Part shown: positions 2,970-16,786 of the stretch, one piece after another
How the letters are laid out: the number at the start of each line of letters is the position of its first letter
How positions within the stretch are numbered: position 1 is the stretch's first letter
NCBI GenBank assembly: GCA_035301185.1
Contig: DATGUT010000033.1
Location: 1 to 26,152 of the forward strand
Origin: Salinisphaeraceae bacterium
GTDB taxonomy: Bacteria; Pseudomonadota; Gammaproteobacteria; Nevskiales; Salinisphaeraceae
Length of the DNA stretch: 26,152 nt
Reading direction: 5' to 3'
Position numbers and translations under genes: made by a program
Notes under the pieces: model-generated
Databases searched by the model: none
Told to the model about the DNA's origin: nothing
What the model saw: only the letters and a program-made list of their open reading frames with translations

Positions 2970-3080
2970 TGCAATGTGCCCCCCTTGGCAATTTTGATTA
3001 TTCTGCGTGCCGAAGCTGCGGCATGGTGCCAATCAGCAACCGCTACGGCCCCGACGCAACCCCAATACGACAAGTAATAT

Positions 3081-3590
3081 ATGGCGATTCTCGAGATTTT
3101 GCACTTCCCCGATCCGCGCCTGCGCGAGCAGGCGCAGTCTATACAAGTTTTTGATGACGCGCTGTCGCGCTTCATCGACGACATGTTCGAGACCATGTAC
3201 GACGCCCCTGGTGTCGGCCTGGCCGCGACCCAAGTCGGTGTGGCCCAGCGGGTGGCGGTCATGGATTGCTCCGAAGACAAGAACCAGCCCATCGTCATGT
3301 GCAATCCCGAGATCATCGACATGCGCGAACTGGAAACCGTGGAAGAGGGCTGCCTGTCGGTGCCGGATCACTACGATCGTGTGCAGCGCTACAGCTGGGT
3401 CGCCTTCAAGGCGCAGGATCGCGCTGGCACAGCGTATGAGATGGAGGCCGAAGGCCTGCTCGCCCAATGCGTGCAGCATGAAACCGCGCATCTCAATGGC
3501 GAGCTGTATATCGACAAGCTGTCGCGGCTGAAGCGCGATCGCATCCGCCGCAAGCTGCTCAAGGCGCGGCGCCAGGCCGCCACGGGCTGA
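3081..3590 (+). CDS. def: Peptide deformylase
   Basis: All three PDF motifs: GVGLAATQ, EGCLS, QHETAHLNG. Confidence 0.97.
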   Translation: MAILEILHFPDPRLREQAQSIQVFDDALSRFIDDMFETMYDAPGVGLAATQVGVAQRVAVMDCSEDKNQPIVMCNPEIIDMRELETVEEGCLSVPDHYDRVQRYSWVAFKAQDRAGTAYEMEAEGLLAQCVQHETAHLNGELYIDKLSRLKRDRIRRKLLKARRQAATG

Positions 3591-3593
3591 GCG

Positions 3594-4517
3594 ATGCGCA
3601 TTGTCTTTGCCGGCACGCCCGAGTTCGCGCTGCCCAGCCTGGATGCGTTGGCCGCATCCGCGCACGAGCTGGCCGGCGTGCTCACCCAGCCCGATCGCCC
3701 GGCGGGGCGTGGGCGCAAGCTCACACCAACCCCGGTCAAGCAACGCGCGCTGGAGCTTGGTTTGCCTGTGCAGGAGCCGACCAGCCTCAAGCAGGCCGCA
3801 GCGGTTGCGGCCCTGCAAGAGTTGCAGCCGGAGGTCATTGTGGTGGTTGCCTATGGCTTGCTGCTGCCGCAGCCGGTGCTGGAGCTGCCGCGCCATGGTT
3901 GCATCAATCTGCATCCCTCGCTGCTGCCGCGCTGGCGTGGCGCGGCGCCGATCGAGCGCGCGGTGCTCGCCGGCGATGCAGAGACCGGCGTCAGCATCAT
4001 GCAGGTCGACAGCGGTCTCGACAGCGGTCCGGTGCTGCTCAGCCGCACGCTGGCCATCGAAGCTGGCATGACCTCGGGCGATCTGCATGCTCGCCTGGCC
4101 ACCATGGGCGCCGCGGCTTTGCTGCAGGTGCTTGCCGAGCTGCCGCGGGGGCTGCGCGCCACGCCACAGGACGAGGCCGCGGCGACCTATGCCGAGCGCT
4201 TGAGCAAACAGGAAGCGCGCATCGACTGGCAGACGGATGCCAGTGCCGTGGCGCGTGCCGTATGCGGTTACGCGCCGTGGCCGGTGGCATTCACCTTGCT
4301 CGACGGCCAGCCGCTGCGCATTTGGCGCGCCCAGGCCCTGCCTGGCACCAGCGCTGCCCCGGCCGGCACGGTCGTGGCCGCCGCGGCCGAGGGCATCGAC
4401 GTGGCCTGTGGCCGCGGCCTGCTGCGTGTGCAGGAGTTGCAATTGCCGGGCAAGCGGCGCATGGATGCCGCCAGTGCCGTCAACGGCCGCGCCTGGCTCG
4501 GGCTGCATTTTGACTGA
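3594..4517 (+). CDS. fmt: Methionyl-tRNA formyltransferase
   Basis: MRIVFAGTPEFA, TQPDRPAGRG, INLHPSLLPRWRGAAPI; follows def by 3 bp. Confidence 0.97.
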   Translation: MRIVFAGTPEFALPSLDALAASAHELAGVLTQPDRPAGRGRKLTPTPVKQRALELGLPVQEPTSLKQAAAVAALQELQPEVIVVVAYGLLLPQPVLELPRHGCINLHPSLLPRWRGAAPIERAVLAGDAETGVSIMQVDSGLDSGPVLLSRTLAIEAGMTSGDLHARLATMGAAALLQVLAELPRGLRATPQDEAAATYAERLSKQEARIDWQTDASAVARAVCGYAPWPVAFTLLDGQPLRIWRAQALPGTSAAPAGTVVAAAAEGIDVACGRGLLRVQELQLPGKRRMDAASAVNGRAWLGLHFD

Positions 4518-5808
4518 TGGCGCGGCGCCACGCGCTGCCGCCGCGCGTGCGGTGGCGGCAGTCATGGCTGCCGGGCGCAGCCTGGATGTCGCGCTGGCGC
4601 AGCAGCAACACAAGCTGTCTGACAAGGATCGCGCGCTCATGCAGGCACTGGCCTATGGCGTGGTGCGCGAGCATCGCTTGTTGTTGGCATTGCTGCAGCC
4701 GCTGCTCAAGCGCGCGCCGCAGCCGCTGTTGCAGGCATTGCTGCTGGTTGGCGTATATCAGCTGCGCGCCATGCGCATTCCAGCACATGCGGCGGTGCAT
4801 GCCACGGTGGCGGCGGCGCCGACGCTCAAGCTGGGCCGGGCGCGCGGCATGATCAATGCCGTGCTGCGCCGTTACCAGCGTGAGTACAAGCGCCTGGAAC
4901 AGGCATTGCCAGTGTCGCCGGCGGTGCGCACATCGCATCCCGACTGGCTGGTTGAGCGCCTCGGCCAGGACTGGTCGCAGCAGAGCGCGGCGCTGCTGGC
5001 GGCCAACAACGAGCCGGCGCCCATGCACCTGCGCGTCAATCGCCGGCGCACCAGCCGCAGTGCATATCTGCAGACATTGGCCGCCGCCGGCATCGATGCC
5101 GAGCCGGCCGCGCATGCGCCGGATGGTCTGACCCTGGCGCAGCCGCAGCCGGCCGCGACCCTGCCCGGTTTTGCCGATGGCACCGTATCGGTGCAGGACT
5201 GCGCCGCACAGCAGGCGGTGGATTTGCTGGCGCTCGCCGACGGCCAACGAGTGCTGGATGCCTGCGCCGCGCCGGGCAACAAGACGGCGCACATGCTGGA
5301 GCGAGCTGAGATCGATCTGCTGGCACTGGACGTAGCACCGGCGCGCCTGCAGACATTGCAGGCGAATCTGGCGCGCCTGCAGCTGCAGGCCACGGTGCGC
5401 ACGGGCGATGCCACCCGGCCCGCCGAGTGGTGGGATGGCCAGCCGTTCGCGCGCATCCTGCTGGATGCACCCTGCAGCGGCACCGGCGTGATTCGCCGTC
5501 ATCCCGACATCAAGTGGCTGCGCCGGCCCGGCGACATCCAGGCCGCAGTCCGGCGCCAGCGCCTGCTGCTGGATGCGCTGTGGCCGCTGCTGGCGCCGGA
5601 CGGGCTGCTGGTTTACGCCACCTGTTCGCTGCTGCGCGCCGAAGGTGCGGCCGTGGTGCAGGATTTTCTCGCCGCCACGCCGGCCGTCGCACAAGCGCCG
5701 ATCAGCGCAGCCTGGGGCGAGGCCGAAGCCGTCGGCCGCCGCATCGCGCCCGGCGCGGACGGTTGCGACGGTTTCTACTACGCCTGTATCCGGCGCCGTG
5801 CCGATTAG
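4510..5808 (+). CDS. rsmB: 16S rRNA m5C967 methyltransferase RsmB (Sun)
   Basis: NusB-like N-terminus, [32 protein letters not shown]. Probable TTG start at 4510 overlapping the fmt stop; start is inferred. Confidence 0.93.
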
Positions 5809-6590
5809 CTGTAGATGGCATCACGCACGACGACGCCGCGCTCGGCCAGATAACTCTTGGCTTGCTGCACGGTGATTTCGCGGTAATGGAAGATCGACGC
5901 CGCCAGCACGCCATCAGCATGGCCAAGCGCCAAGCCTTCGTATAAATGCTCCATCGTGCCGACGCCGCCGGAGGCAATTACTGGCACTTCCACGCGATCG
6001 GCAATGGCGCGCGTGAGTTCGAGATCAAACCCCGACTTGGTGCCATCCCTGTCCATGCTCGTCACCAGCAGCTCGCCGGCGCCGTAGTCGGCGAGCTGCT
6101 GTGCCCAGGCCAGCGCATCCAGACCAGTGGCCTTGCGCCCGCCGTGGGTGAATACCTCCCAGTGTGGAGCGGCTTCGCCGGCCGCCGCCTGTTTGGCGTC
6201 AATGGCGCCGACAATGCATTGGTTGCCATAGCGGGCGGCGGCTTCACGAATCAGCTCGGGATCGGCGATCGCCGCCGAATTAATGGCCACCTTGTCGGCG
6301 CCGCAGGACAGCAGCCGTTGAATGTCCGCCAGGCTGCGCACGCCGCCACCTACGGCGAGCGGGATGAAGATTTCGTCGGCCACGCGCTGCACCAGGTCGA
6401 ACAGCGTGTCGCGGCCCTCGTGACTGGCCGCGATATCGAGCAGGATCAGTTCGTCGGCGCCGGCCTGGTCGTAGCTGCGCGCCAGTTCCACCGGATCGCC
6501 GGCCTGCTTCAGATCGACAAAGCGCGTGCCCTTGACCACCTGGCCATTCTTGACATCCAGGCAGGGAATGATGCGTTTCGCCAGCGTCAT
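5805..6590 (-). CDS. hisF: Imidazole glycerol phosphate synthase cyclase subunit
   Basis: [37 protein letters not shown]; stop overlaps the convergent rsmB stop by 4 bp. Confidence 0.97.
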
Positions 6591-7327
6591 GCGTTTTCTG
6601 CTCCGGCAATCAGTTGCTGCGCGGCAGCGAAATCAAGCGTGCCCTCGTACAGCGCGCGGCCGATGATGGCGCCGCTGACACCGTCGCTTTCGGCATCCAG
6701 CAGGGCGCGGATGTCGTTGAGGTCGGTGACGCCACCGGAGGCGATGACCGGGATCGACAATTCCCTTGCCAGCGCCCGGGTGGCATCGATGTTGAGGCCC
6801 TGCATCATGCCGTCGCGGCGGATGTCGGTATGCACGATGGCGACCACGCCGTCCTGCTCGAACTGTTGCGCCAGTTCGGCGGCGGTGTTGCGCGACAGTT
6901 TCGACCAGCCGTCGGTGGCCACCTTGTCATCGCGCGTGTCCAGGCCGACGATGATGCGCCCCGGAAAGCCGATGCCGACATCGGAGACGAAATGCGGCTC
7001 CGACACTGCGCGCGTGCCGAGGATGATGAATTCGACGCCGAGGTCGAGATAGGTCTCGATGGCGGCTTCATCGCGAATGCCACCGCCGAGCTGCACCGGC
7101 GTGCTGCCAGCTGCCGCCACCATGCGTCCGATCAGCGCCTGGTTGACCGGTTCGCCGGCGCTGGCGCCATCCAAATCGACGATGTGAATGCGATCGGCGC
7201 CGGCCTCCACCCAGCGCGTGACCACGTTTTCGGGATTGTCATCGAACACGGTCACGTCGTCCATGCGCCCTTGGCGCAGGCGTACACATTGACCATCCTT
7301 GATATCAATTGCGGGAATCAACAACAC
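6587..7327 (-). CDS. hisA: ProFAR isomerase HisA
   Basis: [47 protein letters not shown]; 4-bp overlap with hisF. Confidence 0.97.
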
Positions 7328-7348
7328 GTCCGTTGCCTCATCTCATTG

Positions 7349-7993
7349 TCAGGCACGACCGTCCCATTGCAGGAAATTGGCCAACAGCTGCAGGCCCGGG
7401 GATTGGCTTTTTTCGGGGTGAAACTGCACGGCGAATACGTTGTCGCGCAGCATGGCCGAAGCAAAGCGCCGGCCATATTCGGTGGTGCCGATTATATGTT
7501 TGCGATTGTCTGGCACTACATAATAACTGTGCACAAAATAGAACCAGCTGTCGGGCGCCACGTCCTGCCACAGCGGGTGTCCTCGCTCCTGTCGCACTTG
7601 ATTCCAGCCCATGTGCGGAATCTTGCGGCGTATACCATCGGCATGCGCGGTTGCTGGCGAAAAGCGCAAGGCATTGCCGGGAAAGGCGCCCAATGCCTTG
7701 ATGCCTTCGTTTTCCTCGGAGTGTGTCATTAACGCTTCGATGCCCAGGCAAATGCCCATGAGCGGCTTGCGGCCAATGGTCTGCATGAGCATGGCATCCA
7801 GCTCCAGCCGGTGCAACTCTGCCATGCAATAGCTGATCGCACCAACGCCAGGCAACACCAGCCGGTCCATGTGCGCGAGTGCATCCGGATCATAGCTGAT
7901 CTCGATTTGCTCATCCGTGGCCACATAGCGCAAGGCGTTGGCAATGGAATGCAGGTTACCCATGCCATAATCGATGATTCCGACTGTTGCCAT
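7349..7993 (-). CDS. hisH: Imidazole glycerol phosphate synthase glutamine amidotransferase subunit
   Basis: IIDYGMGNL, LPGVG, GICLG nucleophile Cys, FYFVHSY, QFHPEKS. Confidence 0.97.
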   Translation of the reverse strand: MATVGIIDYGMGNLHSIANALRYVATDEQIEISYDPDALAHMDRLVLPGVGAISYCMAELHRLELDAMLMQTIGRKPLMGICLGIEALMTHSEENEGIKALGAFPGNALRFSPATAHADGIRRKIPHMGWNQVRQERGHPLWQDVAPDSWFYFVHSYYVVPDNRKHIIGTTEYGRRFASAMLRDNVFAVQFHPEKSQSPGLQLLANFLQWDGRA

Positions 7994-8039
7994 AGCAATA
8001 CTTGGTCAGATGGGATGTTTTTCGGGTGGGGTGGTGAGG

Positions 8040-8642
8040 TCAGAGCAGGCCTTTGGTCGAGGGCATGCTGTCGCCGAGGCGCGCATCGCGACCGATGGCC
8101 ATGCGCAGCGCGCGGCCGAAGGCCTTGAACAGGGTTTCTGCAATATGATGGCTGTTGGCGCCCTTGAGTGCGTCCATGTGCAGCGTGACGCTGGCATGGT
8201 TGGCTAGGCCCTGGAAGAACTCGCGCACCAGTTCGGTATCGAACTCGCCGATGCGATCGCTTGGAAAACTGGCATGGTAGAACAGGCCAGGGCGCCCGGA
8301 CAGATCGATGACCACGCGCGCCAGGGCTTCGTCCAGAGGCACGTAGGCGTGGCCATAGCGGGTCAGCCCGCTTTTGTCGCCCCAGGCCCGCGCCAGCGCC
8401 TGGCCAATGCAGATGCCGACGTCTTCGACCGTATGATGGGCGTCGATGTGCAGATCGCCTGTGGCCTGGATCGACAGATCAAGCTGGCCATGGCGCGCGA
8501 TTTGTTCGAGCATGTGATCGAAGAAGCCGACCCCGGTTGAGCCTTCGAAACGGCCGCTGCCGTCGAGATCGAGACTGATGCGAATATCGGTTTCTCGAGT
8601 CTGCCGTGCGATGCTGGCACGGCGGGCGATCATGTTGGTCAT
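8040..8642 (-). CDS. hisB: Imidazoleglycerol-phosphate dehydratase (monofunctional, no phosphatase domain)
   Basis: [40 protein letters not shown]. Alternative start at 8633. Confidence 0.96.
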
Positions 8643-8693
8643 AACCTGGTCATTGGCCTGTTTGGCAAACGCGCGATGATACGCGCAGCGCTC

Positions 8694-8699
8694 ATTCTA
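8694..8699 (-). promoter_or_regulatory. Candidate -10 (TAGAAT) for hisBHAF
   Basis: TAGAAT on the minus strand about 50 bp upstream of hisB in the 117-bp dtd-hisB gap; no convincing -35 at 17 bp. Confidence 0.35.
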
Positions 8700-8759
8700 C
8701 GCCAATTGCCGCGGCCTCGGCGGCAACAGATCCGGAGCCGTGCTGCACGAGCGGCGCAT

Positions 8760-9197
8760 TCAGCTTTGCAGCCAGAATGTGACCGGGCCGTCGTTGACGA
8801 GTGCGACTTGCATGTCGGCACCAAAGCGGCCCAGTGCGACCGGCACCGCTCCCTGGGCAAGCGCATCAGCGAACACGTTGAACAAATGCTCTGCCGGCGC
8901 CCCGGCCAGGGCGCGGGAAAAGCCGGGGCGATTGCCACGCCGGGTATCGGCGGCGAGCGTGAACTGCGGCACGGCGAGGATGGCGCCGCCGGCCTGGGCC
9001 ACGTTCAGGTTCATGCGGCCTTCGGTGTCACTGAACAGGCGATAGCTGCCGACGCGCTCGGCCAGGCGCCGGGCGCGGGCCTCGTCGTCGTCGCGTTCGG
9101 CGGCCACCAGCGCCAGGATGCCGCGCTCGATGGCGGCCACGGTTGTGCCGTCAATGGCAACAGAGGCACTTCGCACGCGCTGCAGCAGGGCAATCAT
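8760..9197 (-). CDS. dtd: D-aminoacyl-tRNA deacylase
   Basis: MIALLQRV start, QFTLAAD, GRFGADMQVALVNDGPVT; 145 aa from ATG 9197, overlapping the thrB stop by 4 bp. Confidence 0.95.
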   Translation of the reverse strand: MIALLQRVRSASVAIDGTTVAAIERGILALVAAERDDDEARARRLAERVGSYRLFSDTEGRMNLNVAQAGGAILAVPQFTLAADTRRGNRPGFSRALAGAPAEHLFNVFADALAQGAVPVALGRFGADMQVALVNDGPVTFWLQS

Positions 9198-10156
9198 GCC
9201 GGCTCCGGCAACAGAGCGGGCGGCATCGTCCGATGCAGGCGCAGCAAGCGTTCGTAAGGTGCGGGGTCGTGCATTTGGCTGGCATCGCCGTTTATCGGGA
9301 AATGGTAGTCGTAAAGACGTGAAGCCCAGAAGCGCAGCGCCGCGGCGCGCAGCATGGCCGGCCAGGCGCGCTGCTCGACCGCAGTCAGCGCGCGCTGCGC
9401 GCCGTAGGCGTGGATGAACGCCTGCCAGCGCGCGGGCAGGAAGCGGATGGCGGCATCGAAACACCAGTCGTTGCAGATGATGGCCAGGTCGAACAGCAGG
9501 TAGTCGTGGCAGGCATAATAGAAATCGATGATGCCAGAGACCCGATGGCCAGCGAACAAGACATTGTCGCGAAAAATGTCGGCGTGGATCACAGCCTGCG
9601 CCAGCTGTTGCCAGTCAGCGCTGGCGGCAAACTCGTTCTGCGCCGCGATTTCATCCTGCAGCAAGGCTGCGGTATCGGCATCCAGACGCGGCTCGAGCGC
9701 GGCCGCGGCCTCGCGTATCCAGGGCAGGCCGCGGGTATTTTGCTGGCGCACGGATAGTGTTTTCGCTGCCCTGTGCATGGCCGCGACCACTTCACCCAAG
9801 GCACGGCATTGGGCCAGGTCTGGCTGTTCGATACTCGCACCCTGCAGCAGATAGACCAGCGCCGCCGGGCGCTCGCACACGGTGCTTAGAAAACCGCCAT
9901 CGTTGCGCAGCACCGGATGCGCGCTGGGAATGCCGTGGGCCGAGAAGTGATCCATCACGGTCATGAAAAAAGGCAGGGCGGCGGCCGTCATGTGCTCGAA
10001 CAGGGTCAGCACCCAGCGGCCGTGGCTGGTGGTGACGAAGTAATTGGTGTTGGTAATGCCGCTGGCAATGCCCTCGAAGCCTTGCAGGCTGCCGATGTCG
10101 TATTGGGCCAGCAGCGTCTCCAGGTCGGCTCTTGTTATCTTGGTATAGACTGCCAT
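9194..10156 (-). CDS. thrB: Homoserine kinase, APH-fold (Pseudomonas-type ThrB)
   Basis: MAVYT start, GITNTNYF, VLTLFE, IHADIFRDNVLF, IIDFY, AALRFWASRLYD. Confidence 0.92.
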   Translation of the reverse strand: MAVYTKITRADLETLLAQYDIGSLQGFEGIASGITNTNYFVTTSHGRWVLTLFEHMTAAALPFFMTVMDHFSAHGIPSAHPVLRNDGGFLSTVCERPAALVYLLQGASIEQPDLAQCRALGEVVAAMHRAAKTLSVRQQNTRGLPWIREAAAALEPRLDADTAALLQDEIAAQNEFAASADWQQLAQAVIHADIFRDNVLFAGHRVSGIIDFYYACHDYLLFDLAIICNDWCFDAAIRFLPARWQAFIHAYGAQRALTAVEQRAWPAMLRAAALRFWASRLYDYHFPINGDASQMHDPAPYERLLRLHRTMPPALLPEPA

Positions 10157-10157
10157 G

Positions 10158-10472
10158 TCAGGACAATTGCTTGCTGGCGCGTTTGCGGAACACCCGCATT
10201 TCCTTGACTGCCTGGTTGTCGCCGCGGGCTTCGGCCACGGCTATGCCCTGGTCGAAGACTTCTACCGCGCGCGCCGGCTCGCCGCTGGCGGCCAGTGCCT
10301 GGCCATACAGTTTCCAAGCGGCGGAATAGTCTGGATCGTGCTCCACGGCCGCGGCCAGGTGTTCTGCCGCAGCCTGCGGCGCATCTTCCTGCAGCAGGAT
10401 TTCGCCCAGGGAAAAACGCAGCAGCGCGTTATCGCGCCCGGCGGCGAGCATGGCTTCAAGTTTTTCTTTCAT
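10158..10472 (-). CDS. Small tetratricopeptide-repeat protein (104 aa)
   Basis: DNALLRFSLG, AAEHLAAAVEHDPDYSAAWKLYG and GDNQAVKEMRVF pattern; ATG at 10472, 5 bp after the trkH stop. Confidence 0.85.
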   Translation of the reverse strand: MKEKLEAMLAAGRDNALLRFSLGEILLQEDAPQAAAEHLAAAVEHDPDYSAAWKLYGQALAASGEPARAVEVFDQGIAVAEARGDNQAVKEMRVFRKRASKQLS

Positions 10473-10477
10473 AGGTA

Positions 10478-11935
10478 TTACTGTCGCCAGAAGGTTGGCG
10501 TGAAAATAACAAGCAGGGTAAACATCTCCAGTCTGCCCATGATCATGGCCAGACTCAGAATCCATTTTGACAGAATCGGCAAGCCGGCAAAATCGGTGCT
10601 GGCCCGGGCCAGCCCCACGCCCATGTTATTGATGCAGGCGGCAACTGCGGAAAAAGCGCTGACTTCATCGACCCCATTCGCCAGCAGACAAAGAAACATG
10701 ATCACGAACACCGCGACGTAAACCGCAAAAAACCCCCAAACGGCCTGAATGATGCGATCCGGCACGGTTTTGCCGCCGAGTTTGATCGGGATTTTCGCGT
10801 TTGGATGCACCAGCCGATTGATTTCGCGCAGCCCCTGCTTGGCCAGCAGCAGGAAGCGCACCACCTTCATGCCGCCGGTGGTACTGCCGCCGCAGCCGCC
10901 GACAAAGCAGCCGAGCAGCAAAAACATGGGAATGAAGCTCGGCCAGCTGACATAATCCGCCACCGTCAGGCCGGTGGTCGTGCCAAACGAAATGGCCATG
11001 AAGACGGCCGCCAGCAGAGCCTGCGGAAGCTGCGTGTAGGTCGCCGAAAACAGCAGAATCAGGGCCACGAACAGGGATACGATGACGACCATGACGAGAT
11101 AGGCGCGCGCTTCCGGGTCGCGCACGTAAATGCTCGGATCGGCATGGCGCCAGGCGGTAAAGTGCAGGCCGAAATTAATGCTGCCCAGCAACATGGCGAA
11201 GATGGTGACCAGCTCGATGGCTTGCGAATTGAAATGGCCGATGGAAGCGTCGTAGTTGGCGAAACCGCCGGTGGCAATGGCGGAAAAGCCGTGGCTGACT
11301 GCATCAAACGGGCTCATGCCGGCGCTCCAGAACAACAGCACGCACAGCAGTGTCAGCGCCAGATAAATGTACCACAGGGCCTTGGCCGTTTCGCGAATGC
11401 GCGGCGTCAGCTTGGTGTCCTTGACCGGTCCCGGTGTTTCCGCGCGATACAACTGCATGCCGCCGATGCCGAGCATGGGCATGACCGCCACCGCGAGCAC
11501 GATGATGCCCATGCCGCCCATCCAGTGCAGCAGCTGGCGCCAGAACAGGATCGCGTGCGGCATGCCATCCAGCCCGCTCAACACGGTTGCGCCGGTGGCG
11601 GTGAGCCCGGACACAGCCTCGAACATGGCATCTGTAAGGGTCAGTTCTGGCGTTGTGGCAAGCAGCAGCGGCAGAGCGCCGAAACTGCTGAGCACGACCC
11701 AGAACAGCACCACGACCAGGAAGCCGTCGCGAATCTTGAGATCACGCCGAGTTTTGCGCACCGGCAGCCAGACCAGCGTACCCGCGGTCAGGGTAATGGC
11801 AAATGAGGCGGCGAATGTCTGCGCGCCGCCTTCACCATAAAACAATGCCAGCAGCAGCGGGATCAGCATGCTGGTCGAGAACAGCATGAGCAGGGCCCCC
11901 AGAATATGCTGGACGGTGGCAAACTGGTGCTTCAT
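10478..11935 (-). CDS. trkH: Trk potassium uptake membrane protein TrkH
   Basis: Multiple TM segments, pore-loop glycine motifs (TATG, TGGF, TTTG, NNMG), [27 protein letters not shown] 11935 preferred. Confidence 0.95.
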
Positions 11936-12030
11936 ATCGACATCCGGCGCCCCCAAGGCACGGCAACAAGCGATCGGGCGCTATGCGCATTGCCCGGCAT
12001 GGTGGCCGCAGCGCCAATGACCGTGCAATC

Positions 12031-13449
12031 CTACAGGAACGAGGGGCTGACCTGAAACAGGCGCTCCACGCGGCTGACATGGCGCTTTTCGGTGACGAAC
12101 AGAACCACATGGTCGCCGGATTCGATGACCGTGTCATGATGCGCGATCATGACCTTGTCGCCGCGCACAATGGCGCCGATCGTGGTTGTTGGTGCGGGCT
12201 TGTTGTCTTGGGTGCGATTGTGCTTGTCTTTGGGCAGGTCGATTTCATCGATGCGCCGGCCGACGATGCGCGAAGTGCTGCGCTCGCCGTGGGCGATGGC
12301 TTCGATCGCTTCGGCGGCGCCGCGGCGCAGCGTGTGCACGCGCGCTATGTCGCCGCGGCGCACGTGTGCCAGCACGGCGCTGACAGTCGCCTGCTGCGGT
12401 GAAATGGCAACGTCGATCTGGCTGGCATTGGATTCGATCAGGCTGGCATAAGAGGGCCGATTGATCAGCGCCATGGTCTTGCGCGCGCCGAGTTTCTTCG
12501 CCTGCATGGCCGACAGGATGTTGACCTCCTCATCGTTGGTCACGGCACAGAACACGTCCACATGATCGATGTTTTCCTCCAACAGCAGGCTTTCATCGGC
12601 GGCATCGCCATACAACACGGTGGTGCGATCAACCTGCTCCGACAGCGCCGTCGCGCGCTTGCTGTCGCCCTCGATGAGTTTGACCCGGCAGCGCTTTTCC
12701 AATTCTTGTGCGAGCCGGGTGCCGATATGACCGCCGCCGGCGATCATGATGCGCCTGGCGACCTTGTTCTTGCTTTGCAGCGCGCGCATGACGCGTTTGA
12801 TGTTGCTGGTGGCGGCGACGAAGAAGATCACGTCGTCCGTTTCGATGACTGTCGTGCCTTCCGGCACCATCGGTTTGCCGCGCCGATAAATGGCCACCAC
12901 CCGGGTTTCCAGGTGCGGCAAGACCTCGCCCAGGCTGCGCAATTCGCGCCCGACCAGAGGGCCGCTGTAATAGGCCTTGACGCCAACCACGCGGATGCGC
13001 CCGCCGGCGAAATCCACGACTTCCAGCGCACCGGGAAACTCGATCAGCCGGCGAATGTTGATGGTGACCAGCTCCTCGGGGCTGATGAACATGTCCACCG
13101 GGATTGCATCCAGGGCGAACAGCTGTTTTTCCCTGGTGTATTCCGTGGCCCGAATGCGCGCGATCTTGGTCGGCGTCTGGAACAGGGTGTAGGCCACTTG
13201 GCAGGCGATCATGTTGGTTTCGTCGGCATCGGTCACGGCGATGACCATGTCGGCATCACCGGCGCCGGCATCGTGCAGGGTCTGTGGATATGAAGCAAAA
13301 CCTTCGACCGTCTGCACATCGAGCCGATCCTGCAGTTCATGCAGCAGCGCCACATTGGTGTCGACAATGGTTATGTCGTTGTTTTCGCTGGCAAGGTTTT
13401 CGGCCAGCGTGGCACCCACGCGGCCCGCGCCGAGGATAATGATTTTCAT
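12031..13449 (-). CDS. trkA: Trk potassium uptake regulatory protein TrkA (two RCK units)
   Basis: [12 protein letters not shown] and second Rossmann motif IAGGGHIG; [11 protein letters not shown]; RCK_C domains. Confidence 0.96.
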
Positions 13450-13520
13450 GGCCTGGCCACATTAGAGCGCTGTCTGGCGCTATGCAACCATGGTCATATA
13501 CGCAACCCCGAAATTAAGCG

Positions 13521-13526
13521 TAGAAT
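13521..13526 (+). promoter_or_regulatory. Candidate -10 (TAGAAT) for hisI-hisE
   Basis: TAGAAT in the divergent trkA/hisI gap, the same hexamer as upstream of hisB; no clear -35. Confidence 0.3.
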
Positions 13527-13557
13527 GGCAGGTCAACACACGCAATCGAGACTGCGC

Positions 13558-13995
13558 ATGCCTGTCGCTGGGGATACTCCTGCAGCCGCTTCTGCCGCTA
13601 CCTGCCTGGACGCAGTGGCCTGGGATGAGCGCGGCTTGGCGCCAGCCATAGCCCAGGATGCCGGCAGTGGCCGCGTCTTGATGCTGGCTTGGATGAACCG
13701 CGACGCGCTGGCGGCGAGCATCGCCAGCGGTTTCGCCACTTATTGGTCGCGTTCGCGCGCCCAGCTCTGGCGCAAAGGCGAGAGTTCCGGCCACCGACAG
13801 CGCATCGTCGATATGCGCCTGGACTGCGATGGCGATACATTATTGCTGCAGGTGGAACAAATGGGTGGCATTGCCTGCCATACTGGACGTGCGTCCTGTT
13901 TTTATCGGGCGCTGGATGCAGCCGCAGGCGGCGATTGCTGGACAGTGCGCGACCCGGTGTTGAAAAATCCTGACGATATCTATTCCCATGAATGA
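13558..13995 (+). CDS. hisI: Phosphoribosyl-AMP cyclohydrolase
   Basis: [40 protein letters not shown]. Start uncertain (ATG 13525 or 13558). Confidence 0.93.
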
Positions 13996-14335
13996 CTCCG
14001 GCATTATGATGCAGCTTGACCGCCTGCTGGCCGAACGCCGCCGCAGCGCGGATCCCGCCGCCAGTTATACGGCTTCCCTGTATGCGGCCGGCACGGCCGC
14101 AATCAATGCCAAAGTGGCGGAAGAGTCGGCGGAAGTGATCGAGGCGGCGCAGCAGGCCGATGGTGCCGGCGCGCAGGAACGCGCACATCTGGTGTACGAG
14201 GTCGCGGATCTGTGGTTTCATTGTATGGTGTTGTTGCAGGCGCATGATTTGAGCGTGGCCGATGTGCAGGCGGAATTGGCCCGGCGCTTCGGCATCTCTG
14301 GTTTGGCGGAAAAGGCGGCGCGGTCCGCGCGCTGA
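13988..14335 (+). CDS. hisE: Phosphoribosyl-ATP pyrophosphohydrolase
   Basis: [36 protein letters not shown]; 8-bp overlap with hisI. Confidence 0.95.
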
Positions 14336-14422
14336 CGATGATATCGGCTGTCCACCAAGAGAAATCCGCAGGCCGGAAACACAGAATGGCTGCTGTGCTC
14401 AGGGCATGCAGCACGATGATAT
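14335..14422. repeat. 10-bp direct repeat ACGATGATAT at 14335-14344 and 14413-14422
   Basis: Exact match read from the sequence in the hisE-tatA gap. Confidence 0.7.
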
Positions 14423-14444
14423 TCCTTGGATGTAGAGGTTAATT

Positions 14445-14714
14445 ATGGGACTTGGCGGAATTAGCATATGGCAGCTTTTGATCCTGCTGGCCATCGTGGT
14501 GATGGTATTTGGCACCAAGCGGCTGCGGAACCTGGGTGGTGATCTCGGCAGCGCGCTGAAGGATTTTCGCACGGCGATGAAGCAGGATGACGATGAATCC
14601 GGCGATGCGACACCGGAACAGTCCGGTACCCAGGAGTCGCGGGTGATCGACCAGGATCCGGCCGACAACACGGCGCAAACGGACAAGACGGCCTCCCACG
14701 ATCGCTCTTCCTAG
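14445..14714 (+). CDS. tatA: Twin-arginine translocase TatA
   Basis: [13 protein letters not shown]...[14 protein letters not shown]; GAGG RBS. Confidence 0.96.
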
Positions 14715-14720
14715 GCGACC

Positions 14721-15110
14721 ATGTTCGATATCGGCTTCTGGGAACTTACGCTTGTTGCCGTAATTGCCTTGATCGTGCTCGGACCGGAGCGTCTGCCGGG
14801 AGCTGCGCGCACGCTCGGCAAGTGGGTGGGGCGTGCGCGGCGCTACGCCAATACCTTGACCAGCGAACTGGAGCGCGAAGTCGATGTGCAGGGCTTCAAG
14901 CAGGAAATCAACCGTGCCCGCGACAACGTCGAAGCGAGTACCAGAGAAGCAGTCAAGGATCTGGATGATGTCGAAACCGGCACTCGCGATGTACTGGATG
15001 ACATCAACAGAGCGGCCGATAACATGGATGACGAGCAAACGTCGCCGCAGGTCGCCACAAATACGGATAACTCGGAAGCTTCTGCTGTAACGGAAAAATC
15101 GACTAAATGA
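14721..15110 (+). CDS. tatB: Twin-arginine translocase TatB
   Basis: MFDIGFWEL...LGPERLP. Confidence 0.95.
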   Translation: MFDIGFWELTLVAVIALIVLGPERLPGAARTLGKWVGRARRYANTLTSELEREVDVQGFKQEINRARDNVEASTREAVKDLDDVETGTRDVLDDINRAADNMDDEQTSPQVATNTDNSEASAVTEKSTK

Positions 15111-15895
15111 GTCACAAGCAAAACGCGCCGGAAGATCGCGAACAGCCGCTGATGGCGCATTTGCTGGAATTGCGCAGTCGGCTGTTGCGCGCCGTGGTGG
15201 GTATTTTGATCGTGTTCATCCCGGCTGCTTTTTATGCCTCCGAACTTTATACCTGGCTGTCAGGGCCGCTGCTTGCGCAACTGCCGGAGGGCGGCAGCCT
15301 GATCGCCACCGGCGTGGCCGCGCCGTTTCTGGCGCCATTCAAGCTGGCCATGCTCACCGCGGTCGTGATTTCGCTGCCATGGACGCTGTACCAGATCTGG
15401 GGCTTCATCACCCCCGGCCTGTATGCCCAGGAACGGCGCCTGATGACGCCGCTGCTCATCTCCAGCACTGCGCTGTTCTATCTTGGCATGGCGTTTGCCT
15501 ATTTCGTTGTGTTCCCGGTTGCGTTCAACTTTTTCGTCTCGTTCGCACCGGCCGGGGTCACCGTCGCCACCGACATCTCTTCGTATCTGGATTTCGTGCT
15601 CGGCATGTTCATCGCCTTCGGCGTTGCCTTCGAGCTGCCGATTGCCATTTATCTATTGGTCTGGGCAGGCATGGTCACTCCGCGCGCGCTACGCAGCTAC
15701 CGCGCCTACGTCCTGGTCGGCGCCTTTGCCGTCGGCATGCTGCTCACGCCGCCCGATGTCATCTCCCAGACTCTGCTCGCCGTGCCCATGTACCTGCTGT
15801 ATGAAATCGGCATTTTCGCCGCTGCCAAACTGGTTCCCGGCATGCGTGAGGTCGAAGCCCAGCAGGATGAACAACGCCAGCAAGGTGACGGCTGA
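15107..15895 (+). CDS. tatC: Twin-arginine translocase TatC
   Basis: PLMAHLLELRSRL, FITPGLYAQE, FELPI, LLTPPDVISQ; six TM segments. Confidence 0.97.
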   Translation: MSHKQNAPEDREQPLMAHLLELRSRLLRAVVGILIVFIPAAFYASELYTWLSGPLLAQLPEGGSLIATGVAAPFLAPFKLAMLTAVVISLPWTLYQIWGFITPGLYAQERRLMTPLLISSTALFYLGMAFAYFVVFPVAFNFFVSFAPAGVTVATDISSYLDFVLGMFIAFGVAFELPIAIYLLVWAGMVTPRALRSYRAYVLVGAFAVGMLLTPPDVISQTLLAVPMYLLYEIGIFAAAKLVPGMREVEAQQDEQRQQGDG

Positions 15896-15909
15896 GCGGG
15901 TGCTGCATT

Positions 15910-15943
15910 TGCGCAGGCCGCGCACGACGGCGCAGCCTGCGCA
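15910..15943. terminator. GC-rich hairpin between convergent tatC and the orphan gene
   Basis: 9-bp inverted repeat TGCGCAGGC / GCCTGCGCA; no clear U-tract, so it may not be a classical intrinsic terminator. Confidence 0.45.
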
Positions 15944-15954
15944 GGAATCAGCGG

Positions 15955-16638
15955 TTATTCCTCAACATCGTATTGCTTTTCCAGAGTCGTTTTTTGCCCA
16001 TCCGGAGCGGTCTGGATGACGGTCAGGAAAGCTCGCATGTCAAAGGCATCAGGTGTGTTAATTCCTCCCAAGGGAAGCATTGCCTCCCAGCTATTGTCCG
16101 TGGCCACTGTTTTGATCCACGGGCCGTAATGCGCTGACAGCAGCTCACTGTCTAGCGGATTGGTCGGCTTGCGCCACAGCCAGCCAATCGAAATCCACAC
16201 CCTGCTCTCCGGCGTGCCAACACCTTTGATTCTAAAACCCTCGCCGTCCGGTATTAGCACGGTGTCATGGCTGTTGGCCGGATGAGTGATGGCGAAATCG
16301 GGCGGCGTTGCTGCGGGAAGAGGCCTGCGGCGGCGGGCCTGCTCGCTAATTTCCGCTTGTTTCTCGCGGCTAACCGTTGGTAGATTCTGCCTGGCATCTA
16401 TGCTGGGCGATTTCGGTGCGCGGATGATCTCCGCCCCTCGTGGCGGCTTTATCTTGGCCGTCTTGTCAAGGAATTTTTTCTTTTTCATCTTCATTTCCCG
16501 CATGAAGTCTTCCTTTAGCTTTTCCTCCTGCTCCGCTTGCTGCTGCCTGTGTTTTATGGTCGTCTTGTCGGCGGCATTTGCCATCAGTGATGCAAACATC
16601 GCCAGCACAAGCGCAGCCATGAATATCCCTTTTCGCAT
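15955..16638 (-). CDS. Hypothetical secreted protein (227 aa), possible C-terminal Ig-like domain
   Basis: ATG 16638 gives MRKGIF + hydrophobic core + ANA-A signal peptidase site; a 60-nt line counted at 50% GC; a long open frame in lower-GC DNA is unlikely to be a shadow ORF. Confidence 0.75.
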   Translation of the reverse strand: MRKGIFMAALVLAMFASLMANAADKTTIKHRQQQAEQEEKLKEDFMREMKMKKKKFLDKTAKIKPPRGAEIIRAPKSPSIDARQNLPTVSREKQAEISEQARRRRPLPAATPPDFAITHPANSHDTVLIPDGEGFRIKGVGTPESRVWISIGWLWRKPTNPLDSELLSAHYGPWIKTVATDNSWEAMLPLGGINTPDAFDMRAFLTVIQTAPDGQKTTLEKQYDVEE

Positions 16639-16740
16639 CTCGTGTAACCTTCGCAGTGATAAAGTTCGACTATAACGTCGGCAGGCGGGCCTTCGCGCCG
16701 TCCATTTGAAGGGGGTGAGCAGGAAATCCCCGGCAAGCGG

Positions 16741-16750
16741 CAATATATTG
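16741..16750. promoter_or_regulatory. Perfect palindrome CAATATATTG, candidate operator
   Basis: 10-bp AT-rich palindrome 36 bp upstream of the crotonase start in a divergent intergenic region. Confidence 0.35.
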
Positions 16751-16786
16751 GCGGACAAGCAATTATTTCTACATTAGGAGCTGAAC

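Follow-up and report, generated by a model that had tools for sequence, protein, structure and literature searches.

A 7.6-kb inversion between the rsmB-trkA and hisF-hisI gene clusters, probably a single ancient reversal fixed in the Salinisphaeraceae

INTRODUCTION

In Escherichia coli and Pseudomonas, the genes def, fmt, rsmB, and trkA form a cluster in this order, and in many Proteobacteria the tightly spaced run hisB-hisH-hisA-hisF is followed by hisI, hisE, and tatABC. The concept of a hisBHAF "core" of the histidine genes has been described (PMC10138114). Two known kinds of DNA reversal are also relevant here: small fixed chromosomal inversions that serve as clade markers, and the invertible segments of the Hin, Gin, Fim, and shufflon systems. 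The present study concerns a locus in which both gene clusters are cut, within a stretch of 26,152 nucleotides from a Salinisphaeraceae bacterium (contig DATGUT010000033.1, positions 1 to 26,152, assembly GCA_035301185.1), referred to below as the window. Between the cut ends lies a 7.6-kb block of nine housekeeping genes, trkA to hisF, in reverse orientation.

The subclusters def-fmt-rsmB and trkA-trkH are intact in the window, as are the hisB-H-A-F order with its tight spacing and the hisI-hisE-tatABC run. The data indicate with high probability that one ancient reversal on the stem of the Salinisphaeraceae produced the arrangement, which is now fixed in the family. As in other small fixed inversions, a few genes were reversed once with gene content unchanged, a whole clade took over the new order, and the outgroup order accounts for both new junctions. 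With Hin, Gin, Fim, and the shufflon, the locus shares only a reversed DNA segment.

RESULTS

Gene layout and the two junctions

At the left end of the block (junction A), rsmB on the plus strand and hisF on the minus strand meet tail to tail. The rsmB stop codon TAG occupies 5806-5808 and the hisF stop codon TAA, on the minus strand, 5805-5807, with a 4-bp overlap of the open reading frames (ORFs) at 5805-5808. At the right end (junction B), trkA and hisI are head to head: trkA starts with an ATG on the minus strand (13447-13449), and the ATG at 13558 is the likely start of hisI. Both features can be read directly in the sequence, as the original prediction had claimed, and all of the gene names it had proposed were confirmed by NCBIfam profile scans of the window ORFs. 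The features are as follows.

3081-3590, plus strand: def (NCBIfam peptide deformylase equivalog)
3594-4517, plus strand: fmt (NCBIfam Fmt equivalog)
3081-4517, plus strand: def-fmt, upstream part of the def-fmt-rsmB-trkA cluster, outside the moved block
~4522-5808 (start approximate), plus strand: rsmB (NF008149 RsmB, E 9e-151), last gene left of the left breakpoint
5805-6590, minus strand: hisF (NCBIfam equivalog)
6587-7327, minus strand: hisA (NCBIfam equivalog)
7349-7993, minus strand: hisH (NCBIfam equivalog)
8040-8642, minus strand: hisB (NCBIfam equivalog)
5805-8642, minus strand: histidine "core" hisF-hisA-hisH-hisB, reversed as one unit, its order kept in all relatives
~8760-9197, minus strand: dtd (TIGR00256)
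9194-10156, minus strand: thrB, alternative-type homoserine kinase (NF003558)
10158-10565, minus strand: small TPR protein (weak TPR-type matches)
8760-10565, minus strand: dtd, thrB, and the TPR protein gene, middle of the inverted block
10478-11956, minus strand: trkH (NF008020 TrkH)
12031-13449, minus strand: trkA (NF007032 TrkA)
10478-13449, minus strand: trkH and trkA, far end of the inverted block, very probably once the downstream neighbors of rsmB
13450-13557, 108 bp, no strand: junction B, the trkA/hisI divergent spacer, from the sequence
~13558-13995, plus strand: hisI (NCBIfam equivalog)
13988-14335, plus strand: hisE (NCBIfam equivalog)
14445-15895, plus strand: tatA, tatB, and tatC (NCBIfam equivalogs)
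13558-15895, plus strand: hisI-hisE-tatA-tatB-tatC, unmoved, very probably the former downstream continuation of hisBHAF

The def-fmt-rsmB run stands in its usual order after dprA and a LysM-protein gene. The rsmB start is approximate, and the NF008149 alignment begins at residue 96 of the ORF at 4237-5808.

The co-oriented order is old and widespread

Positions 3000-16000 of the window were compared at the DNA level with 30 relatives, 20 fetched loci were mapped gene by gene, and a wider survey covered 80 named gammaproteobacterial loci. In a scan of named genomes by TrkA alignment, the best relatives were a Salinisphaera metagenome-assembled genome (MAG; 68% identity) and Spectribacter acetivorans; both genera belong to Salinisphaeraceae, Gammaproteobacteria, in the NCBI taxonomy.

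The original prediction held that reversal of 5805-13449 would restore one co-oriented run. That run was found gene for gene in an uncultured Salinisphaerales bacterium of a sister family (f7) of the same order (genome G024, locus L001), which carries def-fmt-rsmB-trkA-trkH-TPR-thrB-(1.7 kb)-dtd-hisB-hisH-hisA-hisF-hisI-hisE-tatA-tatB-tatC on one strand. The nine block genes form an identical set with the same internal order in this genome and the window. The whole co-oriented run, through to tatB or tatC, was also present in three distant gammaproteobacterial MAG loci (L026, L027, and L085), and part of it in two more (L041 and L065). More generally, >60 of the 80 gammaproteobacterial loci, including those of Enterobacterales and Pseudomonas, have def-fmt-rsmB ahead of a co-oriented trkA, in keeping with the E. 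coli and Pseudomonas aeruginosa order that the original prediction had given. In seven outgroup genomes, hisI-hisE and the tat genes directly follow hisF on the same strand. The order hisBHAF-hisI-hisE-tatABC was thus found in the outgroups, but its framing as betaproteobacterial did not hold, since the lineage is gammaproteobacterial (Salinisphaeraceae); both of the gene orders given in the original prediction apply to basal Gammaproteobacteria as well. In four other families of the order, rsmB-trkA-trkH and dtd-hisBHAF-(I)E-tatABC are each co-oriented and lie on separate contigs. Because it is found in G024, in distant MAGs, and in the >60 surveyed loci, the co-oriented order is old and widespread.

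Two regions of the run vary in content among the loci examined. A constant insert of 4.1 to 4.6 kb, often 4.2 to 4.3 kb, separates rsmB from trkA in many other Gammaproteobacteria among loci L024-L080 (e.g., L026:5677-10001), namely Chromatiales-like MAGs, Thioalkalivibrio, Thiodiazotropha, and Sedimenticola; it is absent from the order to which the window belongs, from Enterobacterales, and from Pseudomonas. The thrB-dtd link is broken by TRAP transporter DctQ/DctM genes in Spectribacter G006 (L011:8365-12179), by 4.4 kb of extra DNA in G001 (L012:8386-12837), and by a gene for an LpxL-like acyltransferase in the unflipped G024 (L001:10381-12135). In the window, Salinisphaera, and genus g4, nothing intervenes between the two genes.

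The flipped form occurs in a single clade

The Salinisphaeraceae were sampled with 31 species representatives from seven genera, including Salinisphaera and Spectribacter, of which 30 are species other than that of the window. With trkA, hisI, and hisE as the query, trkA and hisI were found adjacent and in the same relative orientation as in the window in 28/30 species. Of the other two, G003 is consistent with the flipped form by the position of tatC, and the contig of G014 breaks exactly at trkA/hisI. An unflipped genome was found in 0/30 species with this query. With rsmB and hisF as the query, both genes were tail to tail on one contig in 27/30 species. In Spectribacter, where the overlap measures 10 bp, they abut or overlap in three species and are separated by ~0.3 kb in the fourth; the separation is ~0.09 kb in G001, 1.8 kb in G002, and 0.8 to 5.3 kb in all 21 Salinisphaera species. 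The pair is separated again in G003, G005, and G007. Outside the family, either flipped junction was found in 0/12 genomes from seven other families of the order.

A maximum likelihood tree of ten concatenated proteins of the locus was rooted on distant Gammaproteobacteria; TrkA of G007 was left out of the alignment owing to an internal stop. All 10 flipped genomes formed one clade with a support of 100/100, and the character requires a single change. The synteny comparison that had been suggested as a check therefore yielded unflipped forms outside the family and a flipped form limited to one clade. The proposal that one inversion split both clusters was borne out by the G024 order, by L026, L027, and L085, and by the single flipped clade.

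An inversion is symmetrical, and this symmetry is all that can be said for the reverse polarity, in which the window order would be ancestral and the co-oriented order derived. Same-strand rsmB-trkA and hisF-hisI pairs occur across many orders of Gammaproteobacteria and in all seven other families of the order that keep them, with these as outgroups the flipped state falls within a single derived clade, and HisF without the extension described below is the general state. The reverse polarity can accordingly be given almost no credence.

Side observations on the family loci concern mainly junction A, which was a hot spot of later insertions and rearrangements. The rsmB/hisF junction contains SIMPL/DUF541 and AAA_28 genes in Salinisphaera G016 (L010:13088-15860) and a DinB-type polymerase gene in G002 (L015:4816-6463). 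In G007, lptF-lptG lie beside hisF (L017:1838-3993). In G005, an IS200-like Y1 transposase gene lies beside hisF (L019:3756-4265), and rsmB is on another contig. At the junctions of the relatives examined, no transposase was found except for this Y1 gene, where the junction had been rearranged again. G005 also carries two tandem trkH copies downstream of trkA (L018:5933-8862). The trkA match of G007 (L017:10276-11667) is ~20 nt longer than elsewhere and its translation holds one stop, which could reflect a pseudogene, a sequencing error, or an alignment artifact.

A coding scar in HisF and the probable breakpoints

The end of hisF carries what appears to be a trace of the reversal.

5805-5822, minus strand: junction A scar, the last five hisF sense codons plus stop, with one replaced residue and four added; overlaps the rsmB stop by 4 bp

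All 10 family sequences end in VRD[AP/L][IVL][YS][RS] followed by the stop, with DAIYS in the window, mostly D[AP][IL]YR elsewhere in the family, and DLVSR in G007. Outgroup HisF proteins end in [VM]R[AQRGL] and are 4 residues shorter (7/7 readable ends; the end of G022 was unreadable). The last hisF codons in G006 (Y-R-stop) lie antisense to the last rsmB codons (Q-R-stop). The extension is retained even in genomes that gained spacer DNA afterward, and it therefore arose once.

In G024, 10 nt separate the hisF stop from the hisI start, and the rsmB-trkA spacer measures 177 nt; in the other outgroups the latter spacer ranges from 11 to 133 nt. From the HisF tail and these spacers, the breaks would fall within ~20 bp of 5805 and between ~13488 and 13557 (<70 bp), close to the block limits of 5805-13449 given by the original prediction. 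Because the breaks appear to lie at the hisF stop and immediately behind the rsmB stop, almost all of the trkA/hisI spacer would be the old rsmB-trkA spacer in reverse.

A more complex origin, with the layout reached in two or more steps, was weighed against a single reversal; for example, independent translocations, or an inversion of far greater extent with subsequent deletions, could have brought hisF to rsmB and trkA to hisI. The segments def to trkH (with or without TPR-thrB) and dtd to tatC lie on different contigs in four outgroup families, and therefore an ancestor with separated clusters is conceivable. Identical junctions would also result if a large inversion had used these two break sites, and Spectribacter and G001 carry 3.8 to 4.4 kb of extra genes between dtd and thrB. 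However, these extra genes vary from lineage to lineage and resemble insertions of later date, and thrB is directly linked to dtd in the window, Salinisphaera, and genus g4; the unflipped G024 and distant Gammaproteobacteria also keep thrB linked to dtd. Moreover, one reversal of a contiguous ancestor explains both junctions, the content of the block, and the HisF scar in a single event. A multistep origin is consequently regarded as improbable.

A breakpoint duplication, which would have left junction B with an inverted relic of the 3′ end of rsmB, was considered separately and was not supported. The idea came from the reverse complement of the -10-like element upstream of hisI (see below), which resembles the rsmB codons F-Y-(Y)-A; its distance from trkA is similar to that in outgroups. 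Local alignment of the junction B spacer of each genome with its own rsmB tail, against 500 shuffles, was nominally significant (p ~0.02-0.05) in 3/9 genomes, with exact 11-nt matches in G006 and G009 and a different, gapped match in G016. The other 6/9 genomes gave p values of 0.09 to 0.6.

The junctions are real and in one fixed orientation

The window derives from a fragmented MAG of 363 contigs that is 85% complete, and the junctions might on that account have been artifacts of assembly. Independently assembled public Logan contigs were therefore compared from two runs, X1, which is possibly the source sample, and X2, which is from a different study. Records 1 and 8 of X1 bridge both junctions (4800-6488 and 12397-14600), as do records 9 and 15 of X2 (4800-8226 and 11690-14600, with 12 and 7 differences). 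All were >99% identical to the window, and no strand-changing joints were reported. Both junctions are also present in the complete single-contig family genomes G006, G037, and G040. An assembly artifact thus retains practically no probability.

Another alternative is that the block is a programmed invertible element, switched by a site-specific recombinase and toggling trkA/hisI or giving antisense control at rsmB/hisF. The segment is small and its ends bear candidate promoters, as might be expected of such an element, and contigs could miss a rare minority orientation. No long inverted or direct repeats bracket 5805 and 13450 in the window, however; the best inverted pairs there are 21 to 38 nt long with 70 to 86% identity, and none is located at both block ends. 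NCBIfam scans detected no insertion sequence (IS) or recombinase gene beside either junction. The ORFs from 3081 to 15895 were all assigned to housekeeping families, with no serine or tyrosine recombinase within or beside the block. These results agree with the original prediction, which had seen no IS or long repeat at the block ends. The orientation is the same in every scorable family genome across seven genera (28/30 directly) and in the contigs of both studies. A fixed coding scar in hisF would, in addition, be lost in the other orientation.

From the contigs, the complete genomes, and the lack of inverted repeats and of a recombinase, misassembly is excluded and a programmed switch is very unlikely. 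The question of a fixed versus a switching block, raised by the original prediction, is answered in favor of fixed. The outcomes that would have spoken against the prediction, relatives with no unflipped form or faulty junctions, did not materialize: some relatives are unflipped, and both junctions are borne out by independently assembled contigs.

Candidate promoters in the divergent spacer

Two promoter-like elements were found back to back in the trkA/hisI spacer.

13459-13487, minus strand: candidate trkA promoter, TTGCAT-17 nt-TAATGT, ending 9 nt before the ATG
13518-13526, plus strand: GCGTAGAAT, candidate new -10 element for hisI-hisE-tatABC, from family conservation

Between the trkA motif and the ATG, no Shine-Dalgarno-like sequence was found, and the position of the motif would leave trkA with a very short leader or none. 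The motif TTGC(A/C/G)-N17/18-TA..GT could be aligned upstream of trkA in 6/7 family genera; in Salinisphaera it is degenerate (TTGCGC, a longer spacer, and TACACT). It is also present in the unflipped outgroups G021 and G030, from two families, and on that ground the candidate trkA promoter is probably older than the flip: trkA would have had its own promoter and taken it along.

The element G[CG]GTAG[AG]AT was found upstream of hisI in 9/10 distinct family loci, representing 6/7 genera, and was absent from this position in seven outgroups. The window contains 2 matches to GCGTAGAAT versus 0.14 expected. In 393 kb of family loci, both strands, the hisI element, here written GCGTAG[AG]AT, was rare at other sites, with 11 matches, of which all but one or two were the element itself. 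The pattern fits a family-specific -10 element for hisIE-tatABC, and GCGTAGAAT is proposed as a candidate for it. The original prediction had held that trkA and hisI would both require a new divergent promoter; this probably does not apply to trkA, whose motif also occurs in the two unflipped outgroup families, and only hisI shows a family-specific new element.

The second exact copy of GCGTAGAAT in the window lies at 8694-8702 on the minus strand, in the dtd-hisB spacer upstream of hisB and 13 nt before GCGTATCAT (8672-8680, minus strand). GCGTATCAT aligns with a -10-like element upstream of hisB that is conserved in most relatives, as G.GTAT[CT]AT in the family and GAGTATCCT in outgroups. 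Both his suboperons of the window genome therefore bear similar GCGTA..AT elements.

Lack of a terminator at the rsmB/hisF overlap

No terminator-like hairpin was found by scanning the rsmB/hisF junction. At both junctions the only match of the scan was a weak hairpin within the trkA coding sequence, and the RNA predicted for 5740-5880 did not fold more stably than shuffled sequences (z = +1.2). Likewise, no spacer terminator turned up in G001 or G011 when the DNA between rsmB and hisF was scanned. As no terminator-like structure is present at the overlap, the rsmB and hisF transcripts would have to run into each other's antisense strand, so that transcriptional read-through is predicted from the sequence.

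Together, these features suggest that the inversion may have been absorbed at both scars, by a new hisIE-tatABC promoter, an older and near-leaderless trkA promoter, and a convergent antisense coupling of rsmB and hisF. Specifically, GCGTAGAAT may have arisen on the antisense strand of the old rsmB-trkA spacer, back to back with the trkA promoter, and the coupling would concern the lineages that still have the overlap, namely the window genome and three of the four Spectribacter species. Taken jointly, this proposal is tentative and somewhat doubtful. If true, antisense interference would couple expression of the ribosomal RNA methyltransferase and the histidine core, and other genera would have relieved the rsmB/hisF conflict by gaining 0.1 to 5.3 kb of spacer.

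Other features of the locus

The longest ORF of the TPR protein overlaps the trkH 3′ end by 88 bp (10478-10565), and its real start is probably further downstream. The trkH-TPR pairing is kept in many Gammaproteobacteria. An ORF directly after tatC (15955-16758, minus strand) had no NCBIfam match.

DISCUSSION

A probable single reversal and its consequences

The following history is proposed. The ancestor would have carried one co-oriented run, def-fmt-rsmB-trkA-trkH-TPR-thrB-dtd-hisB-hisH-hisA-hisF-hisI-hisE-tatABC. On the family stem, a single reversal would have flipped the segment from trkA to hisF, with the left break within ~10 nt after the rsmB stop and the right break at the hisF stop codon, inside the ~10-nt hisF-hisI spacer. 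With its stop lost, hisF would have run on for a few codons, into sequence antisense to the end of rsmB, giving rise to the conserved 4-residue extension. The old rsmB-trkA spacer, with its trkA-proximal promoter-like motif, would have moved to the other end to become the divergent trkA/hisI spacer. The hisI-hisE-tatABC genes, severed from hisBHAF, may then be transcribed from the new -10-like GCGTAGAAT on the opposite strand of this spacer. All sampled genera would have inherited the arrangement with its orientation unchanged. The exact break positions and the function of the promoters are predicted from sequence patterns.

Several observations weigh against this history. No repeats or mobile elements remain to explain the breakage; there could have been ancient repeats at the breakpoints that have since decayed. 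Secondary rearrangements must be assumed for G003, G005, and G007, in which rsmB and hisF are separated again. Only genes of this locus went into the tree. The sister of the family, G022, is weakly placed (91/95) and has the two clusters on separate contigs, so that the contiguous ancestor is deduced from G024 and the distant Gammaproteobacteria rather than from the immediate sister. Finally, G001 and the outgroups G024, G022, and G027 lack the trkA motif, and a strict sigma-70 consensus scan of both junctions detected no promoter, so that neither candidate passes it.

A single ancient reversal would make the locus a well-resolved case of a small inversion that cut two deeply conserved operon-like clusters and was then tolerated. 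One gene gained a short coding tail, one promoter-like element traveled, and another appears to have arisen in the recycled spacer. In practical terms, trkA divergent from hisI, together with the HisF tail, provides a simple marker of membership in the Salinisphaeraceae. As a small natural experiment, the locus could also be used in the culturable Salinisphaera and Spectribacter to study how promoters arise and how convergent genes conflict.

Comparison with known systems

A literature search on inversion, gene order, and synteny in Salinisphaera returned no report on this locus. Compared with the def-fmt-rsmB-trkA cluster of E. coli and Pseudomonas, trkA here lies 7.6 kb away from rsmB and faces away from it; many other Gammaproteobacteria have the 4.2- to 4.3-kb rsmB-trkA insert, which the order of the window lacks. 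The histidine cluster differs from its usual form in that it was cut exactly at the 3′ edge of the core, parting hisF from hisI, and the two halves of the pathway are transcribed in opposite directions from different places.

Unlike the Hin, Gin, Fim, and shufflon segments, the block has no inverted repeats, invertase, or second orientation, and it consists of housekeeping genes. It lacks every defining feature of a programmed invertible element and, in the present sequence, of an IS-mediated inversion. A fixed evolutionary inversion is a known, ordinary kind of event, and no new kind of system is involved. What sets this example apart from other small fixed inversions is that its breakpoints can be placed to ~10-20 bp at the hisF end and to <70 bp in the trkA/hisI spacer, and that the event, with no repeat or mobile element beside it, appears to have left a coding scar in HisF and a conserved new promoter-like element.

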